In this document: piece after piece, positions 368 to 58,324 of the stretch
How the letters are laid out: each line of letters starts with the position of its first letter
How positions within the stretch are numbered: the first letter of the stretch is position 1
Origin: Octopus sinensis
Lineage: Eukaryota
Direction of reading: 5' to 3'
NCBI RefSeq assembly: GCF_006345805.1
Contig: NC_042998.1
Span: forward strand, 5,270,001-5,334,000
DNA: 64,000 nucleotides
Position numbers and translations under genes: made by a program
The notes under the pieces: model-generated
The model's database searches: none
What the model saw: only the letters and a program-made list of their open reading frames with translations
What the model was told of the DNA's origin: nothing

Positions 368-1225
368 CACTGTGCAACACTCAGAAAAGTACAAGAGATC
401 TGTGGCTATTTTTATATGCAAAATGACACGAGAAATCTACTTCTGGCCTTCTTTTTGTTGAATTAGGCATGGTCTCTACAGAATTGTCATTGTATACCCT
501 TTTTATCATTATTATTAAATAAAATTCTCTACCGCATTGTAAAATGAGTTTTAATCCAGGGCTAGAGACCAATCTGAGTAACACCTACAATGTGATTCAA
601 AGCTTGTGTTTAATGTTATTTTTTATCTTTCAGATCTTATTTGTTTTCAACAATGAGTGCAAGACAGTGCAAAAATGATCCAAACAGATTCTGTTATATT
701 TGTGGGGAATTGACTTTGCTAAAGAAAAGCGCATTATTACACGCCATATCAAGAAAATATACAAGGCGTACTTTGATTGTTACTTAGGAGACCAGGATCT
801 GTCATGGGCTCCTCTTGTGGGTCGCCTTACATGTGTGAAAACATTGAGTGCCTGGTGTTCAGGAAAAAATGTTCACATGAAGTTTGGTGTGCTAATGATT
901 TGGCGTGAGCAGAAAGATCGCTCTTATGATTGCTATTTCTGTCACCATGACTTTACAGGCTGTACTACAGCAAAGAAAAAGAAACACATTGTATACCCAA
1001 ATTTTCAATCAGCAATGCGCCCAGTGGAGCACTCAGAAAATTCACCTGTGCCCAAACCTCCAGATAAAGAAATGCAGAATTCCATCAGTGCTGATGAACA
1101 TTCCAGTGGTGAATGTGTGGAGCCCAATGATCCAGAAAGTGAGAATAAACCAATACCATTTTCTCAAGGGGCTCTAAAGGACTTCTGCAGGGATCTCTAT
1201 TTAACCAAAGAGAAAAGTGCTGATT
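368..1225 (+). mobile_element. Chapaev3-like (CMC superfamily) DNA transposon, 5' part with frameshifted, truncated transposase
   Basis: ATG at 653 reads MSARQCKNDPNRFCYICGELT, then a 1-nt frameshift into ORF 700..1242 (YKAYFDCYLGDQDLSWAPL..TC..WREQKDRSYDCYFC..YPNFQSAMRPVEH..FSQGALKDFCRDLYLTKEKSA). This is the Chapa zinc-finger pattern. Candidate terminus CACTGTGCAACA at 368; polypyrimidine-CAG acceptor at 620-633 just upstream of the ATG. The catalytic C-terminal half is absent. Confidence 0.75.
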
Positions 1226-1496
1226 GCAATCAGCATTGTTAATATTTGTAATTCACTATAACCAAGTAATTCTTTACTTACTTATCGCTACAATATACCC
1301 GTCGGTCTATCTTTCAAAAGTAACAAGTCAGTAATCTCTGTTGAAAAAAATTGATCATATAAATATTGATCTTTGTTTAATTTTTTTGACAAAAATCACA
1401 TGAGATAACAAACTGAGAATCACGCCAATACACGAACGTGTTAAGAACTGCTAAGCTGAATTTAGCTAACTTTGATCAGCTACATGATTTTGCATA

Positions 1497-8348: not shown

Positions 8349-8574
8349 GAGGCGCAATGGCCTAGTGGTTAGGGCAGCGGACTCGCGGTCGCAGGATCGC
8401 GGTTTCGATTCTCAGACTGGGCGTTGTGTGTGTTTATTGAGCGAAAACACCTAAAAGCTCTACGAGGCTCCGGCAGGGGGTGGTGATCCCTGCTGTACTC
8501 TTTCACCACAATGGCGGTGCCCCAGCATGGCCACAGCTCAAGAGCTGAAACTGGAAAAACAAAAACAAAAAACA
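8349..8574 (+). mobile_element. tRNA-derived SINE family B with CR1-type tail
   Basis: A box TGGCCTAGTGG, B box GTTTCGATTC; body shared with the 26686 and 55771 copies; tail ggcggtgccccagcatggccacagctc..gagctgaaact; A-rich end. Confidence 0.85.
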
Positions 8575-8814
8575 ATATATATTTGAGTAGTTGAATGAAT
8601 TATCTTATTAAGGATAATTCGAAAGGTAACCGATACCTGGGTAGCAAATTCACATCAGAAAGAACACGGTCGAAGCTACGTCCCTAGGGCATAGACTACG
8701 TGTCTTCGTGCGGAAATTTGTATGTTTATTTTACGATTATAAGTATATGAAAGAATGGAGTTGAACGACTAGTTAACAAATATCCTTTATATATATATAT
8801 ATATATATATACAA

Positions 8815-8983
8815 GGAGCACTTCGTCTGTTACGACGACGAGGGTCCCAGGTAATATTATCAATGGAACAGCTTGCTCAAGAAATTAATGTGCAAGTGGC
8901 TGAGCACTCCACAGACACGTGTACACCTAACGTAGTCCTCAGGAAGATTCAGCGTGCACAGAGAGTGACAAGGGTGGCACTTT
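8815..8983 (-). mobile_element. SINE family D 3' portion
   Basis: Homologous to 30960-31120 (gttacgacgacgagggt..aatggaacagcttgctc..aattaatgtgcaagtggctgagcactccacagacacg). Confidence 0.7.
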
Positions 8984-9768
8984 GTTTTATGATTGACAAA
9001 TTTGTTTTGATGATGTTAAAAACGTTTTGGTGAGGCAGGTTGTAAGTTACTAGAAATGGTATTGTGTTCCTTTGATGGGTTTGTCATTTTCGTGTTGCTC
9101 TAAGTTGTTCTGTTTTGCTCGTTGTTTGCTCTTTTCTATAAGTAGGAGAGGGTAATTTTGCTCGAGCAGAAATCCTTTGAGTTCTATAAGTTGTGTGTTT
9201 CTGGTATGTAGATGATAGACTATAGTACAAATTTTCCTGGCTAGACAGTACGGGATGTTGCGTTTTGTGTGTGTTGGGTGGCATGATTTGAAATTTAGGT
9301 ACTGGTGTGTATCTGCGCTTTTGTAATAAATATCAGTTGTGATTGTGGTGTTGTTTTTAATTACCATTATGTCAAGCAATGCTCATTTCTCTTGTGAATT
9401 TAAGACTAAGGTGTAGATTATTGAGGAGGGGGCTGAATTCTTCCAGATTTCCGAGGGATTTGGTCCGAATTTGGAAACAATCATCGAGGTAACTTCTCCA
9501 TGTGTCCTCTACATGTCTTTAAAAGTCATGCCGTAGTTCTCTTCTATGTTTTTATGTAGGTTTTGTTCCAAGTATCCCAGTACTGAGTTCGCGAAAACTG
9601 GAGCAAATCGCGTCCCCATAGCTGTGCCTCGAATTTGGAAGAAGTTTTTTCCATTAAAAAGGAATGTATTGTTTTCGAGGATGAGGCTGACCGCGTCTGG
9701 TATGAAGGTTAGAGTAAATCTAGTGGGGGATCGCTTCTCTATCTTTCACGAACCAATATTTTATGGCA
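8984..9768 (-). mobile_element. Penelope-like element reverse transcriptase fragment (frameshifted)
   Basis: Minus strand reads AIKYW...ILENNTFLFNGKNFFQIRGTAMGTRFAPVFAN...WRSYLDDCF, then LDIMVIKNNTTITTDIYYKSADTHQYLNFKSCHPTHTKRNIPYCLARKICTIV (ORF 9050..9379). These are typical PLE RT and thumb motifs. Confidence 0.9.
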
Positions 9769-10004
9769 GTTCTAAGACGTATTAAAGTTGTGAAGAACTT
9801 AACTGTCAGTCAAACACATTTGAAATCTGATAAATACGCTGTGTGAAAGCGCTAATTTTGTTAATATAACTTAATAAAAAACGTGAGAACCAGGCTGTTT
9901 TAACTTTATTCAACTTATGCATTATTCTATATACATTCACAAAAATTCGAAACAATATATATATAATATATATATATATACATTTACATGCATACTTGTG
10001 CATC

Positions 10005-10043: not shown

Positions 10044-10311
10044 GAAAATCAACGAAAATGCATATTGCAGATAGAAAAAGGCTATTTATGACAGGTAGTG
10101 ACAAATATATACATTTAGAGTGACTGAGGTAGTAATACGAGTCATAAAGGTCATTATTATGAGATGATTATAAGATGTATAATCATCTCATAATAATGAC
10201 TTTTATGACTCGTATTACTACCTCAGTCAATCTAAATGTATATATTTGTCCCTACCTGTCATAAATAGCCTTTTTCTATCTGCAATATGCATTTTCGTTG
10301 ATTTTTCATAT
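10040..10311. repeat. Near-perfect fold-back inverted repeat (arms ~133 bp, 5-nt loop)
   Basis: 10040-10172 is the reverse complement of 10178-10311 with few mismatches; centre gatgattata-agatg-tataatcatc. Confidence 0.95.
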
Positions 10312-12348: not shown

Positions 12349-12766
12349 AACCTGCAACTCCTGGTGGAGCAAAATTCCATTGTAACTATTGAGGAACTAT
12401 CAGAAAAGCTTGGATTTTGTCATTCAAACCTTCATCGACACCTGCGCTAGAAGAAAAATGACCATATTTCATTCCAAGACAAAAGCTGTTCTTATATCTG
12501 GATAATGCTCTGCCACATACAGTGAGGATGTCATTCCAAGAGCTGAAACAGTTTGAATTGGAAACGATGCCCGACCAACCATATTCGACAGACATTGCTT
12601 CTTCTGGTTATCATTTATTCCGCAGTCTTCAAAATCATTTGAATTCTATAGACGACGTCAATAGAGTACTGGAAGAGTATTTTTCGTCACGGCCAAGTGA
12701 ATTTTGGAAGAGGGGCCTTGCAAAACTGCCAAATAGATGGAACATCATTTATGGGATGACCCAATA
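12349..12766 (+). mobile_element. Mariner transposon 3' fragment (same family as 2818-3680)
   Basis: QPYSTDIASSGYHLFRSLQNHL...EEYFSSRPSEFWKRGL (ORF 12522..12800); TIR catttatgggatgacccaata. Confidence 0.85.
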
Positions 12767-13271
12767 TATATATATATATGTTTCTTTCTTTCCGTTGTAG
12801 CTGGATCAAGGAAGACGTCTTTTTGTCTGTCTCCTGTCCAAGCTTGATTTACGCGTTCGCTTTCACAACTTCGTTTAGGCTTAGCAGTCCTTCCTGTTTT
12901 TTTTTCAGTCTCCTGTTTTGTTACTAATTTTGACCTTCCACAAAAACCACAAATTTTGTTTAATTTGCTTTGCGGGAGCAACTGATTTATCGAAAGCGTA
13001 TCTTGTTGTGAACTGATCGAAATACGAGAATAGAAAACACAGACAACAACTGATGAAGGGTCGTTCTTTAAGTTGTTTGTTTTGTTTTCCATTTGTGCCT
13101 TTCGTTGTTCGAGAAAATAGTTCATATTCCATGTACTCGTACTTCGTATTTTTTGTTGTACAAATTTCGTGATGTCCTGTGCCCACATATGCATATATAT
13201 ATATATACGTATAGATGTAACTATGTTCATATACGTATGTATATATGCATATATATATATAATATACACAC

Positions 13272-23270: not shown

Positions 23271-24489
23271 GTTGTTGTTGTTATGTTGTTTATTTTAGTT
23301 TAGAATCATTTCATTTTATTTTGTTTTGTTATTATTATTATCACTTACCACTGCTGAATTTTCATTGGCATTCTTAAACAATTAGCAAGAACAAATTTGA
23401 GAGGAAAAAAAGATTAATAAAAAAAATGTTGTTAAGCTTTCCACACTGCACCCAGCATGATGTTGTGTTTGTCATTATCAGTAAGAATATTTCAACGAAG
23501 GAAAATACAATTAGACACATTAACCAAATCAATCAATGCATTTAAATTTATTGTCCCTTAATGTTCACTGTTGTAGATTGATTAACCAGCCAATCAGAAA
23601 AAGGGGTGGAGGATTCATTCAAAGACTCTTTTACTTCTTGATTCATTGTGCGATTTCTTTCTCTCTTTTTTTTTCAGATTATTTTTTCCTTTTTATTCAA
23701 CATTTTTTATTCACTTTCAATTTTTCCTTTATTTTTTTCTTCGATTTTGTTTCAAACTGCTTAAATGATGTTGTCTTTGCTATTGTTGGTGTCAACGTTA
23801 TTATTATTATTATTATTATTTTTATTTTATTTTTTGGTCCTATTTTGTATTTTTTAATATATTTTTCGTTGTTTCTATTTTCGTCTACTAAACGAAGAAG
23901 TTGCACATTTACCGCCCTATTCCAGCTGAATTTCCAGTTTCTGAAAGAAAATCTCATTAAGATGTCATTTAAGCAGAATTTCAATGCTATTTTATTCATA
24001 CTGCTAAACATTCGGTGAATTTTAACTCTACTAATAAGTTTTAACATGGAAAAGAGAGTCATTAAAATGATGACAGCGTTAAAGGTGTGTTGGTTACGAT
24101 GATAATGATGATGTTCACGACGATGACAACAGCAACGACAACCTCGATGAATATGATGACACACACGATCCAACAATAATTCAGTTTTCTTATCTTAATA
24201 TATTTTATGCCTTTTTGTCTTCCTTCATATATCTATATATCTCCCATTTTTCTTCTATATATAACATTATATATAGGATTGGCTGTGTGGTAAGTAACTT
24301 GCTTACCAGCCACATGGTTCTGGATTCAGCTAACTGATCAACATCAACGAAGCACATGGGTGAGTTTATATATATTACATCCGGGTGAATGGCAAACTTT
24401 TACAAAATTGCATTTCGGGAGAGGAAAAGTTTTTTCGGAATAAAGATTTTGCAAAGCGAGGCAGGGTCGTTGTTTATTTATAATACATC

Positions 24490-24537
24490 AGGCATGCTGA
24501 TGATTACGTAAGTATGAAATCACTGTGATACAGGCCT
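24490..24537 (+). ncRNA. Type I hammerhead ribozyme, copy 1
   Basis: AGGCATG-CTGATGA-T-TAC-GTAA-GTA-T-GAAA-TCAC-T-GTGA-TA-CAGGCCT; one mismatch in stem I; predicted cleavage after 24530. Confidence 0.75.
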
Positions 24538-24968
24538 ATATTTTTAAATGTCTTACTTGAAAAGTTGCATTCGGTGGGATTAGTAATATTTTTGGTAGAA
24601 ATGACTGATTGTCCTCTTAGCGTTTGGCAGGTATATATAATGCCTCCTGGCATGTATGTATAATTATGCCCTCTATATATAAATTAATATGTTCAATAAG
24701 AAATAATTATTTTCGAAATTTTCTCTTATGAGGTTTTTACGCTATCTACCTGACAATTTCTTGTTAAGTTTTCCTTATTAAGTAGTTGTCCTTAATTGCA
24801 AAATTTTTATTCCGAAAAAACTTTTCCTCTCCCGAAATGCAATTTTGTAAAAGTTTGCCATTCACCCGGATGTAATATATATAAACTCACCCATGTGCTT
24901 CGTTGATGTTGATCAGTTAGCTGTTCGGCTTAAGCGAGGCAGGGTCGTTGTTTATTTATAATACATTC

Positions 24969-25016
24969 AGGCCTGCTGATGATTACGTAAGTATGAAATC
25001 ACTGTGATACAGGCCT
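24969..25016 (+). ncRNA. Type I hammerhead ribozyme, copy 2
   Basis: AGGCCTG-CTGATGA-T-TAC-GTAA-GTA-T-GAAA-TCAC-T-GTGA-TA-CAGGCCT; perfect 7-bp stem I, intact CUGAUGA/GAAA core, AUA cleavage triplet (cut after 25009). Confidence 0.85.
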
Positions 25017-25164
25017 ATATATTTTAAATGTCTTACTTTGAAAAGTTGCATTCGGTGGGATTAGTAATATTTTTGGTAGAAATGACTGATTGTCCCTCTT
25101 AGCGTTTGGCAGGTATATATAATGCCTCCTGGCATGTATGTATAATTATGCCCTCTATATATAA

Positions 25165-25230
<66 letters not shown>

Positions 25231-26453
25231 GTGTGTGTTTATGTGTCTGACAACCGATGGTGACGTGTCTGCGTCGCCGTAACTTCGCGGTTCGGTAAAA
25301 GAGATCGATAGAGTAAGTACTAGGTTTACAAAGGCGGTGCTCCAGCATGGCCGCAGTCAAAATAACTGAAACAAACAAAAGAATAAAAGAATATACATAT
25401 AACCACGCACATACACATATTTTCATGTAGGCTCAATTAAACATGTGCTCATAGAGACATCCAACTCACTTCTTCCTCCCTTTCTCTCTCTCTCTCTCTC
25501 TTTCTCTCTTTCTCTCTGTCTTCTACCATTTTCTTCCTCTTTGAAGGAGCCAACAATTTCCTGTTCTATCAATGAATCCGTAAGAATATTTGTGTGTATG
25601 TGTGTGTGTGTGTGTGTATTAGTATGCATGTCCCTGTGGTCATGCATGTGTGTGTGTGTATGTGTGTGTGTTTCTTTTTAATGATTCACTGTAATTGTTT
25701 TGCTCTTGAAACGATCATACAAAGTTATGCCAAATGATTTAGAAATAATAATTGAATACGGAATACAATATAATCATAATAAGTGCAAATAAAAACACTT
25801 AGAAATAATAATTAACAGAATGAAATTTGAAGTTAAAAGTATAAATAATGAAGAATGATTTTTATTTGTCGGTCTTCAAAATCATTTGCATGTTAACTAA
25901 GTTTGTTTCACAAGCAATTTTATTTGGTTAAGATTTAAAATAATAAACTGATCGCAAATAACATTACTATTCTTGTTATGAAATAGATTGAAAAAGTTGT
26001 TTAAATTAATGTTTTGTTTTTCCTTCATTCATTCTATAAGTTATTTTTATTTCTTTAAAACTGTAATAGAAAATTCCAGAAGAGTATTTAGTTTGCCAAC
26101 ATGCATTTAACTATCGCTACATGCCTAAAATAATGAGAAAATATTGGATTCTTTTGTAATTCTTCAACTTTTCCCCACTTCTTCCTTTCAAAAATATGCA
26201 GCAATTATTGTAAATTGACTACTCCCAAAATAGCTAGAGGGGCATACTGTTATATAGCGTTGTCCTAAAGACTAAGATCATAAAGATTTTTATTTCTAAT
26301 AAAAAAAGAAAAAGTGGAACAATGCATCGAAAGTCTTTGTGTTATGTTTATGCCTCACCATCAGGAATTCCAATTCTGTAAAATACAAAAACAGAATGGG
26401 AGAAAATTCAAGGGGGTTGACGTTTTGAGGGGAAGGATTTGTAAAGTCTTTGT

Positions 26454-28442: not shown

Positions 28443-28608
28443 ATATATATACAATGGGCTTCTTTCAGTTTCCGTCAACCAAATCCACTCACACGGCTTT
28501 GGTCGGCCCGAGGTCATAGTATAAGTAACTTGCCCAAGGTTCCACGCAGTGGGGCCGAACCCGGAACCATGTGGTTGGGAAGCTGACTACTTACCGCATA
28601 GCTATACC
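28165..28608 (-). mobile_element. SINE family C (CORE-like) with internal microsatellite
   Basis: Reverse complement of the 44769 family (ccttgggcaagt, ggccgaccaaagcc, ggaaactgaaagaagccc). Confidence 0.8.
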
Positions 28609-31442: not shown

Positions 31443-32035
31443 TACCTTGGGCACTTGGGCTAATGTCTTCTACTATAGCCTTGAGCTGACTAATGCCTTA
31501 TGAGTGGATTTCGTAGGAGGAAACTAAAAAAAGCCCGACATCTGCATGGGGTGGATGCAGATGTCTTTAAAATAAAACTGGATCTCTTCTTGTCAGGTGT
31601 CCCAGATGAACCAACTTCACGGCAGGAGATGCAGTTGAGGGCAGCTGCATCGAATTCTCTCATGCACCAAATGGCAATTGCTAAAAAGCATTCGTGAAGT
31701 AAAATCATGTAGCAACACCAAATGGCAGTGCCCCAGCATGGCCACAGCTCGTGAGCTGAAACTAGATATAGATAAAGATAAATATATATGTATAAACATA
31801 TATGTGTGTGTGTGTGTGTGTGCGTGCGCGCGTGTGTGTATGATTGTGTGTCTGTGTTTGTCCTCTCACCATCGACTGACAACCGATGTTGGTGTGTTTA
31901 CGTTCCCGTAACTCAGTGATTTGGCAAAAAAGACTGATAGAATAAGTACTAGGCATACAAAGAATAAATCCTGGTGTCGATTTGTTCGACAAAAGGCACT
32001 GCACCAGCATGGCCGCAGTCAAATGACTGAAAAAA
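31443..32035 (+). mobile_element. SINE family C hosting a LINE 3' insertion
   Basis: ccttgggca..gtcttctactatagcc..gagtggattt..aagcccg at 31443-31537, resuming after a microsatellite with gacaaccgatgttggtgtg..cagcatggccgcagtcaaatgactga. Confidence 0.75.
31538..31765 (+). mobile_element. CR1/L2-group LINE 3' end
   Basis: LHGVDADVFKIKLDLFLSGVPDEPT...RAAASNSLMHQ* (FKxxLDxFL..PD.P C-terminal motif), then 3' UTR ggcagtgccccagcatggccacagctcgtgagctgaaact. Confidence 0.8.
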
Positions 32036-32116
32036 AATCTGTTGCTATGAGCACAACAATTTTTAAGTGGTTGCTCGTAATCCATGGATTTTTCAGCAGG
32101 AAACTTCAATCCAAAG

Positions 32117-44768: not shown

Positions 44769-44930
44769 AGGCGTAGGAGTGGCTGTGTGGTAACTAGCTT
44801 GCTTACCAACCACATGGTTCCGGGTTCAGTCCCACTGCGTGGCACCTTGGGCAAGTGTCTTCTACTATAGTCTCAGGCCGACCAAAGCCTTGTGTGTGTA
44901 TTTGGTAGACAGAAACTGAAAGAATCCGTC

Positions 44931-44970
<40 letters not shown>

Positions 44971-45204
44971 GTATATATATATATGTGTGTGCGTGTATAT
45001 GTTTGTCTGTGTTTGTCCCCCCAACATCGCTTGACAACCGATACTGGTGTGTTTACTTCCACGTAAACTAGCGGTTCGGCAAAAGACACCGATAGAATAA
45101 GTACTATGCTTCCAAAGAAGTCCTGGGGTCGATTTGCTCGACTAAAGGCGGTGCTCCAGCATGGCTGCAGTCAAATGACTGAAACAAGTAAAAGAGTAAA
45201 GAGT
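44769..45204 (+). mobile_element. SINE family C (CORE-like), full length
   Basis: A box TGGCTGTGTGG, B box GGTTCAGTCC, CORE-like ggcaccttgggcaagtgtctt, internal (TA)n, tail ggcggtgctccagcatggctgcagtcaaatgactgaaac plus gtaaaaga repeats. Confidence 0.9.
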
Positions 45205-46829
45205 GAATGCAATTCCTGAGGAAGGGTCCTGCAAGATGAATACATCTACGGCACAGTTTCGTATCAATGATATGGTGAAATTTTTTAAAATTCGATTAAC
45301 AGAGGTTACCTTGTTATCCGGAGACGAAAAGAAAAAGTATTTGTACGGGTGTTTAAAATCTAATAGCAACGAGTAATGAAGGTAAGTCTATTGGTGTCAG
45401 TCAATTAATCCCAACTAAAGTAAATACACTTTTCTACTGATATATAGAGATATATAACGATCTAAACAGGTTTGTTGTTTTTACTAACTGGTTTTCAGGA
45501 CAAATTCCCCTCTTAAAAGCATCGTTTATATTTTCCAAAAGTTTCCATTCGCTGATATTATTCGAGTTATCTCCCTTGATTATTTCTTCATTAATTCTAA
45601 ATACGCCTAAAGGTAATTTTTGTCTTTTATTGCAAGTATAAAGTCATTCGAAATTTCTCGAATCACTATATTACATATGTGACACAATCTACTGTAAGTG
45701 TATTTAGGATACAGAACGCTCCCGTGAGGCAGTATCCATCAACCTTATTAATGAAATATATTCTTTGACATATCATGTATTTAGCCTGTCGCTATTTTGA
45801 TTCCCAGTTGGATATATTTCACTTAAAGTGTTAATGCCCTTGGTGAAAACTTAAATGTCACAGCTTCAATTTCTTTTACGTATCTAAGTTGCTAATTTTC
45901 TTTTTCAAAATCCTGTCAAACAATTTCAGAATTTGTTAAACTGTTTGATTCCTACCAGCATATAAAAGATGTATATAAAAGCTTTTAATAAAAGAAAAGA
46001 AACGTAAATGGGGAAAAGACATTATTGAATATTATTGAACAAATAAAACATTTTTGTCTATCTGCGTTGGACATCAATAATACCTAAATTGAGACATTTT
46101 CCTTGGAATATTTAACAGAATAATTTAGACAATTTGGCAACAATGGACGAGATTTCGTTTCTTTTGTTTCTCTGTGTGTCTATTGTTAACTTCATACTTA
46201 AAAGAAATATAAACCTCATTTGATTGTCATGTGCATGTAAGAATATTTATTCTTAATGTTTTTTTTAGTGTCAAAGTTCATTGTTTTTTCGTTTTTTTTC
46301 TTTGTACAAAGTTGTATACAAATGATACATGCCATAGAGAAATAGCTATATATAAATGAATAATACTGTTTTAGAAAAGTAGAAATTAAATTACTTCAAA
46401 TGAAAATATAAAATATTTATTGCATTTTAGATGAAGAGCCATATACACTGTTTTTCACGCCGTTTACTTCAAAGTAGAAAAAGAAGAATTTATCCTTTAT
46501 TGCTGTTTGTTAAAATTAATAGCAAACTTTTTTCCATTAGATTCTAATAATCATTCTGACTAAAATAATATACTATTCAAAGCTACGTTATAGCTTTTGT
46601 TTTAAAGCAGTCTTTACATATATCGTAGTATAAATTTTAATAGTTGAAGATAATTGATAGATACTCATAACGATTATATTAATCGTAGATGCAAAATCAT
46701 GCTACTGCGATGTATGATAATTCGTTTACTAAATGAACCGAGAGATTGGTAGCTGGACATATGTAAAGAATATTCAAGTGTTAGTTGCTTTTGTGCTAGA
46801 TTATCATAATAACTATAAACAAAAATTAT

Positions 46830-48497: not shown

Positions 48498-48555
<58 letters not shown>

Positions 48556-48700
48556 TATGTATATGAGAACCAGTATTGGTGTGTTTACATCACCGTAATC
48601 TAGAGGTTCGGCAAAATATACCGATAGAATGGTTACTTGAATAAGTTCTTCAAGACGGCGCTCCAGCATGGCCGCAGTAATGTCACTGAAAGGAAAAAAA
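48346..48700 (+). mobile_element. SINE family C
   Basis: Same head, core and tail as the 44769 copy. Confidence 0.85.
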
Positions 48701-48761
48701 TTGTAAAATAAGAAGAGCACTCAGAGAACGCAAACCTCCGCCAAGGCAACACCAACGTCCT

Positions 48762-57049: not shown

Positions 57050-57700
57050 TTTGGTGCCAGCGACAGAAGAATACAAAGCTGGTTCTTTACAAACCATTTG
57101 TTTTACCATCCTTGTATTCCTGTGAAACTTGGACTTGTTATGAAAGGCATTTTAAACTCTTAGAATAATTCCACCAAAAATATCTTCAACGCATGTAAAA
57201 ATTGAATGGATACCTTTTAGTCAAAACACAGATGTCTTTGCACCTGCAGGCATCATCTCAATTAAAGCTATGATTTTAGGGAACCAATTGAGATGGTGTG
57301 GCCATATTGTTCAAATGGCAGATGAACGCATGCTGAAACTGTTGTTTTATGGTAGCCTTGCAGAGGGGAAACGCTATCGGCGTAAACATGAAAAAAAGGT
57401 TTAAGGACGGCATAAGGAGTATTATGAATGCACTGGGAATGGTTCCCTAAGACAAAGAAATCTTTGCTTCAGATCGAGTTGCATGGAAAACAAAGGTGTG
57501 AGTGGAGTGAAAGCATTTGAAAAGGAAGGCCAGGATAGCACAAGTAAGACTCAAAAGAGATCTAAGGAAGATTGTAACGATCGAGAAAGTGAATGACAAT
57601 GGCCTTTTTGCGTGCACAGTCTGTGATAGACCATGCTTGTCATTTGCTGGCTTCAAATCCCATCTGCGAACGCATGGAAAACAAACCTCCACCAACTATT
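57050..57700 (+). mobile_element. RTE-clade LINE 3' fragment
   Basis: TKLVLYKPFVLPSLYSCETWTCYERHFKLLE*FHQ; QLRWCGHIVQMADERMLKLLFYGSL; C-terminal C2H2 FACTVCDRPCLSFAGFKSHLRTH. Confidence 0.9.
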
Positions 57701-57719
57701 CTGTGTCAGTGCACACTTT

Positions 57720-58324
57720 TGCGATGAAAAGTGCATTCTGTACAATAATGAAAATGGTTTCTTCGCGGTGGTTGGATCAGAATGAAGCGCCGAAAATCTT
57801 CCCTAAACCTGAGCTCTTCAAAAAGAAGGTTATGGCGACTGTTTGATGGTGTACTGCTGGACTCATCCACTATAACTTCTTAAAACCCGGAAAAAACAGC
57901 CATTCCTGTAGAAACATATTGCCATGAAATTGCCAAAATGAACGAAAAACTGCAACTCCTCTGTCCCAAACTGGTCAACAGAAGAGGGCCAATCATACTT
58001 CAGGAAAATTTTCGACCACGCGTTTCACTAATGACGCTCCAGACGTTGAGGAATTCTTCCATACAGCTTATTCCCCAAACCTTTCTCCTACCGACTAACT
58101 CCTTTTCAAGCACCTTGATGGTTTCCTGCGAGAGAAGTTAAAAAAATCAAACCGATGCTGATCAGCTCCAAAACTCCAGATTTTTGTATTACCGGAATAA
58201 ACGAACTCGTTGGCAAAAATGTGTTGATGGTAATAGTACCTACTTTGATGAATACAATTTCCGCATTACTGAAATATATGGTGATGAATTTCATGTTTTA
58301 AAACGTTGCTTACTTTTTACTCAG

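Follow-up and report, generated by a model that had tools for sequence, protein, structure and literature searches.

Non-LTR retrozymes of metazoans are described as tandem repeats that carry type I hammerhead ribozymes and have a GC content below 45% (Cervera & de la Pena, 2020, PMC7229834). About 5000 hammerheads in repeats of 350-390 bp were reported for the mussel Mytilus galloprovincialis (PMC7229834), and 235 hammerhead matches were given for the giant squid genome (PMC6962438). Expression of retrozymes as circular, self-paired RNAs was observed in coral, mussel and axolotl, and Penelope-like elements (PLEs) were proposed as their mobilisers (PMC7229834; PMC7761336). A preprint by Li, Clavereau and Pollet argues that retrozymes, with lengths of 51-972 bp, derive from PLEs and are non-autonomous, and it reports cleavage in one of nine Xenopus retrozyme dimers (bioRxiv 10.64898/2026.07.22.740005). 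In the available parts of these sources, both the mobilising enzyme and the template are still presented as proposals (PMC7229834; bioRxiv 10.64898/2026.07.22.740005). PLEs themselves show partial tandems, inverted 5'-truncated copies and a bias towards (TA)n (PMC8557442), and type I hammerheads with a palindromic stem III occur in their pseudo-LTRs (pLTRs; PMC4209133). With a purified PLE protein, AT-rich DNA was nicked and reverse transcription began at an internal position of the RNA, downstream of its hammerhead; insertion in vitro did not depend on hammerhead cleavage (PMC11167929). In octopus, recently active Penelope families comprise 329 insertions in 30 families, and 6.83% of the O. 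vulgaris genome consists of PLEs (190 families; PMC13282606); neither 'ribozyme' nor 'hammerhead' occurs in the text or supplement of that paper. No description of a cephalopod retrozyme was found in the literature searched, and supplements or Repbase/Dfam may already include the family reported here.

We analysed a 64-kb window of Octopus sinensis (the window being the whole stretch of DNA under study) with a loose type I hammerhead descriptor on both strands, using 100 dinucleotide shuffles as control. Exactly two matches were obtained, whereas the shuffles gave a mean of 0.1 matches (91 with none, eight with one and one with two, the maximum). The cores of the two matches lie at 24497 and 24976, and cleavage is predicted after 24530 and 25009. 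The motifs, located at 24490-24537 and 24969-25016 on the plus strand, contain the core CUGANGA and GAAA and an NUH cleavage triplet. In copy 2, a perfect 7-bp open stem I is combined with a 3-bp stem II with GUAA loop and a palindromic stem III that forms 4 bp as monomer and 5+5 bp as dimer. In copy 1 the 5' strand of stem I reads AGGCAUG, which results in an A·G mismatch at A24494. Two complete hammerheads had been claimed in the original prediction; the two motifs, the stems of copy 2 and the palindromic stem III stand, but copy 1 does not have the AGGCCUG strand assigned to it. Stem II is closed by U·U in both copies, and the typical but non-obligatory G10.1-C11.1 pair is absent. The U·U pair had been singled out as atypical. 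This view could not be upheld, since the pair is replaced by A-U in about half of the family and natural U10.1-U11.1 hammerheads, which are partly active, have been published (PMC3088659). A search of Rfam gave no hammerhead family at E<=10 for 24300-25170 or at E<=1 for the whole window. What Rfam did match in the window were models of microRNA type, located on microsatellites and hairpins, and none of these matches reached the gathering score.

Both motifs lie within a direct repeat (R), of which copy 1 spans 24454-24690 and copy 2 spans 24932-25172 on the plus strand. Repeat comparison gave 97.5% identity over 241 columns at an offset of 478-482, and the six differences comprise four 1-nt indels, A24494 versus C24973 and A24686 versus T25168, the last one sitting at the target boundary. 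All four indels are missing from copy 1 and all lie in runs. The single-copy part of the unit (U, 24691-24931, plus strand), which has no ORF, separates the two copies. Upstream of copy 1, an inverted arm (24327-24454, minus strand) is the reverse complement of 24796-24923, a segment that usually lies ahead of the repeat within the unit; 127 of 128 positions are complementary, with one mismatch. An 8-nt stretch inside U (24924-24931, plus strand) is absent at the inversion point. The tandem repeat of ~235 bp and the 128-bp inverted copy that had been predicted are thus confirmed, and with two internal substitutions in ~365 nt of duplicated parts the insertion is young, as was also predicted. 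The 479-nt unit between the predicted cut sites (24531-25009, plus strand) has a GC content of 33%. Its longest stop-free run in six frames is 51 aa, so that it contains no ORF, in agreement with the earlier statement that no recognisable protein is encoded. No second copy of the unit was found elsewhere in the 64-kb window. Together with the sequencing data discussed below, the evidence supports that the element at this locus is a real, non-autonomous, multi-copy tandem hammerhead unit with Penelope-like junctions.

The element interrupts another repeat, which we label SINE-like from its general resemblance, and of which an uninterrupted relative is present at 44774-45230. The upstream target, the head of the SINE-like repeat (24274-24329, plus strand, 89% match to 44774-44829), breaks off at 24329. 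Beyond the element, the target sequence continues within its internal (TA)n tract, which by sequence inspection occupies 25168-25229 (no strand assigned) and forms the 3' junction, and the interrupted tail follows at 25230-25385 on the plus strand, as judged by comparison with the 44774-45230 copy. The 3' end of the element falls at 25167-25172, which is 158-163 nt beyond the second cut. Roughly 100 bp of the target, equivalent to 44830-44931, are missing, and no target-site duplication was seen at the junctions of the element. SINE-like repeat copies were observed at 44774-45230, 48498-48711, 31876-32036, 28554-28602 and 8508-8582, and the internal (TA)n tract of this repeat may be a recurrent target. 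The inverted arm starts at a base equivalent to 24923, and 8 nt separate it from the forward copy, which starts at the equivalent of 24932. The three bases with which the arm opens, CAG (24327-24329), also belong to the target. The total length of arm, gap and forward part is 855 nt, which equals 1.78 units and includes both cut sites. Therefore, the template was not a linear 479-nt monomer, and either a circle or an uncut multimer has to be assumed. As an interpretation, the junction geometry fits twin priming, the model proposed for L1 5'-inversions (Ostertag & Kazazian, 2001, as described in PMC2246262). The anatomy of the junctions also bears out the prediction of inverted and tandem junctions of Penelope-like type.

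The unit is contained in 20 of 24 listed sequencing runs, none of these 20 being entered as RNA and all being present as contigs, from 10 studies and under eight organism labels, which are not to be equated with eight species. Four runs (X1, X2, X7 and X14) were compared over 24046-24795, which corresponds to the whole unit minus 8 nt, without the internal duplication. The flank of the locus is present only in X1 and X2 among these four; the single-copy flank matches exactly in X1 (depth 48.2) and with one substitution and a 13-nt insertion in X2 (depth 39.2), and X1 may be the source sample. Relative to this flank, the summed contig depth of the element reached a median of 10,532x (1,331-19,917x) in X1 and 10,902x (3,916-18,154x) in X2, rough values that are not copy numbers. 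We read this summed depth as a family of thousands of copies, and the predicted multi-copy nature is confirmed in both runs that contain the flank. In X7 the unit has a depth of 12-78 and the SINE/element ratio is ~3,700, compared to 14-32 in the other three runs; the RNA status of X7 is a guess, poly(A) selection would lose circles, and as contigs only these data allow nothing firm on expression. X14 has no flank and a SINE depth of ~560 and looks like trace DNA; two of its contigs span most of the unit. Behind 24768, one X14 contig runs 189 nt into a diverged version of the unit, which hints at an older subfamily.

In all four runs the end of U is joined to the start of R and the sequence is continuous across 24795/24796. 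The contigs also cross the R-U boundary, so that the order R-U-R is obtained, and the depth of R is not above that of U. Joints, boundary crossing and equal depth together indicate that the prevailing form is a closed head-to-tail unit without ORF. Contigs of other copies continue as SINE past 24329, and among the contigs listed none bridges either of the locus-specific junctions, which speaks neither for nor against them. Position 24494 is C in all depth of all four runs and the A of copy 1 is found in none of the contigs compared; A24494 is either private to copy 1 or an assembly error. Within the 48 nt of the ribozyme, T24504A and C24535T are the only variants of at least 5% in the four runs, and neither lies in the core. 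With T24504A (58% of depth in X1 and 41% in X2), stem II is closed by A-U instead of U·U, while C24535T (40% in X1 and 81% in X2) leaves a G-U pair in stem I. The two repeats do not differ in their allele at any of the 11 family-variable sites, among them the minor alleles G24564 (9-12% of depth) and G24630 (7-16%), and the inverted arm shares the allele of 24796-24923 at five of five. At the four indel sites, the copy 1 state appears common in X1 and X2 contigs. For three of them the copy 2 state accounts for 0.2-40% of depth in X1 and X2, yet for 100% in X7 and X14.

Hammerhead 2 alone is predicted to prefer an inactive hairpin by 2.0 kcal/mol. For two hammerhead 2 molecules, the active double hammerhead is the predicted minimum-energy cofold (-35.3 versus -27.6 kcal/mol for two monomers), which fits the dimer model for a palindromic stem III (PMC4209133). 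In the precursor 24454-25060, the active dimer is predicted to lie 7.8 kcal/mol and two active monomers 11.7 kcal/mol above the minimum-energy fold, and stem I forms with a predicted p of 0.90-0.99 in copy 2 versus 0.0 in copy 1. From these fold costs, the locus's own copy may cut poorly. The 479-nt monomer is strongly self-paired by prediction, with -132 kcal/mol (z -6.47; none of 100 shuffles was as good). A second test gave z -7.8 (reverse strand -6.4) versus -3.0 to +4.0 in all 49 low-repeat control windows of 479 nt, and as a circle 63% of the monomer would be paired. A covariation check, which had been suggested for the unit, did not add to this: five of 21 family variants (three of the 21 come from one low-depth X7 contig) break a pair versus 7.7 expected, so that the predicted monomer fold is not significantly spared (P=0.12), and no two-sided compensation was seen. 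If transcription reads through the locus, the inverted arm would, by prediction, pair with the unit over its full length (p>0.5 for 128 of 128 pairs). Such a 128-bp duplex would block the monomer fold at the locus, and it is tempting to speculate that it could serve as substrate for double-stranded-RNA editing or dicing.

The unit combines a partial tandem, an inverted 5'-truncated copy and a microsatellite target, which is the structural trait of PLEs. An ORF with RT and GIY-YIG between the repeats is absent both at the locus and in the R-U-R contigs listed. A Penelope RT at 9 kb had been proposed as mobiliser in the original prediction. The RT-like remnant at ~8950-9800 on the minus strand has YLDD and G.AMG motifs in different frames, from which we presume it to be a Penelope-like RT. 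No Pfam family was found in its fragments, and in the ESM Atlas a 110-aa C-terminal RT piece was placed with PF26215 HTH_animal clusters, a weak assignment below the level of reliable recognition. Stops and frameshifts break its frames and its nucleotide similarity to the unit is of low complexity only, for which reasons this remnant was rejected as mobiliser. It is the sole PLE sequence that was compared, and no pLTR similarity of the unit to it was found. At 10045-10305, adjoining the PLE remnant and a (TA)n tract, a near-perfect 261-bp palindrome is present (arms 10045-10172 and 10178-10305, 128 nt each, 98% complementary, 5-nt loop), which is possibly a foldback/MITE element or another inversion junction. 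The window further contains a mariner/Tc1-type transposase remnant at 57759-57843 (PF01359, E 1.6e-5, in ORF 57511-57846). A second such remnant is presumably located at 12462-12800, assigned by resemblance with no Pfam match. A 187-aa open frame with Cys/His-rich motifs and no Pfam family (679-1242, plus strand) looks to us like a DNA-transposon remnant. No tRNA was found by ARAGORN.

On balance we favour, with confidence somewhat above even, that 1.78 units of an abundant 479-bp non-LTR retrozyme, which encodes no protein, were recently inserted at this locus by a Penelope-type RT/endonuclease acting in trans on a circular RNA. In the cycle that we propose from the observed anatomy, abundance, head-to-tail closure and absence of an ORF, tandem copies would be transcribed. 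Two hammerheads would then pair via their palindromic stem III, cut both sites and release the 479-nt monomer, which a host ligase would close into a compact circle. The PLE enzyme would nick the (TA)n tract, and reverse transcription would start ~160 nt downstream of the cut site and pass the circle junction twice. Potentially, the other target end anneals via CAG and primes a second cDNA 8 nt from the stop of the first one, which would leave the 128-nt inverted arm and the loss of ~100 bp of target. The alleles shared by the repeats at 11 of 11 sites, two of them minor, and by the arm at five of five argue for one circle as template. Several results point against the mechanism, namely the predicted precursor cost of +7.8 kcal/mol, the lack of G10.1-C11.1, the lack of an Rfam match and the non-significant sparing of the fold. 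In the same direction point the dispensability of cleavage for PLE insertion in vitro (PMC11167929) and the cleavage of only one of nine Xenopus retrozyme dimers (bioRxiv 10.64898/2026.07.22.740005). The most specific form of this proposal, in which the copy would be the relic of a Penelope enzyme having reverse-transcribed, in rolling-circle mode, a circular RNA made by the ribozyme, with a start 160 nt past the cut, two passes of the junction and twin priming, is put forward tentatively, at less than an even chance.

The same family and a PLE enzyme could also have used an uncut linear multimer from a tandem array, with a weak or protein-dependent ribozyme and no circles involved in the insertion. 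We consider this rather unlikely, while the 1.78-unit span and the inversion fit it equally well, and the four 1-nt indels, with the copy 1 state common in X1 and X2, are better explained by two slightly different units on a linear template. However, these indels all lie in runs and have the same direction, as consensus errors would, the repeats are identical at all 11 family-variable substitution sites (a homogenised array would give the same), and the predicted monomer fold is unusually strong. That most copies are 5'-truncated and the unit is only the pLTR or truncated end of an autonomous PLE already in repeat libraries is improbable in our view. Among the contig ends listed, contigs run from R through U to R without ORF in all four runs, although a minor branch with an ORF may exist. 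Two X14 contigs span most of the unit, the depth of R does not exceed that of U, and no coding frame is longer than 51 aa. Such an origin would nevertheless be in line with the type I hammerheads and palindromic stem III of PLE pLTRs (PMC4209133), with the matches of Xenopus retrozymes to pLTRs (bioRxiv 10.64898/2026.07.22.740005) and with the PLE abundance in O. vulgaris (6.83% of the genome, 190 families; PMC13282606). Least probable of all, at a very low level, is that duplication and inversion arose at the DNA level, by break repair or template switching, or as an assembly artefact around a dispersed monomer, in which case they would be uninformative on the RNA template. The missing target-site duplication and the loss of ~100 bp of target would agree with this, as would the absence of A24494 from all contigs, which suggests that the assembly may carry errors here; that the contigs listed leave the locus-specific junctions unbridged may be added, while it is neutral in itself. 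Against it, R-U-R is the normal order of the family in independent runs, the 8-nt spacing between arm and forward copy and the 3 nt common to arm and target are expected under twin priming (PMC2246262), and a tandem-plus-inverted structure is typical of PLE insertions (PMC8557442).

To a specialist, the class as such is unsurprising in molluscs. No prior cephalopod description of the family was found in the literature searched, but the class is known, including from a mollusc (PMC7229834), and its PLE origin has already been argued (bioRxiv 10.64898/2026.07.22.740005). Since the insertion carries Penelope marks and required a template longer than one unit, an abundant young family would make the question of mobiliser and template testable from genomes. 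If the rolling-circle reading is true, the family would allow the RT start site to be mapped and the partner element to be named, and genome data would decide whether animal retrozymes move via circles. It would also offer thousands of copies with a natural switch between U·U and A-U in stem II, probably within the octopod lineage.

Like the metazoan non-LTR retrozymes, the octopus element is a tandem unit with one type I hammerhead each, 33% GC, no ORF, a self-paired predicted monomer and thousands-fold abundance. It differs from those described in the available part of PMC7229834 in its length (479 nt versus 170-400 nt, which is within the 51-972 bp of bioRxiv 10.64898/2026.07.22.740005), in a stem II closed by U·U or A-U instead of G-C, and in having an inverted arm and a defined target site; circles were observed there and are inferred here. 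With the vertebrate non-LTR retrozymes it shares a dimeric hammerhead repeat for which mobilisation by PLEs is proposed (bioRxiv 10.64898/2026.07.22.740005). There, the PLE link was drawn from homology to pLTRs and from co-occurrence, mostly in genomes of vertebrates, and the available part of the preprint names no mollusc (bioRxiv 10.64898/2026.07.22.740005), whereas for the octopus unit it is drawn from junction anatomy. The EN+ PLEs (Penelope/Poseidon, Neptune, Naiad; PMC8557442, PMC11167929, PMC4209133) have in common with this locus the partial tandem, the inverted 5'-truncated copy, the (TA)n target, a 3' end downstream of the hammerhead and the palindromic stem III. Unlike them, the unit has no RT/GIY-YIG ORF, and its 3' end lies ~160 nt past the cut, whereas in the Anolis element this distance is ~85-92 nt for the first start site (PMC11167929). 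As in L1 5'-inversions, the inverted segment starts near the end of the forward segment and shows microhomology to the target (PMC2246262), but in contrast to these there is no poly(A) tail and no target-site duplication, and the template was longer than one unit. In summary, the family joins the known animal non-LTR retrozymes and is not a new kind of element; its value lies in the anatomy of its junctions and in the size of the family.
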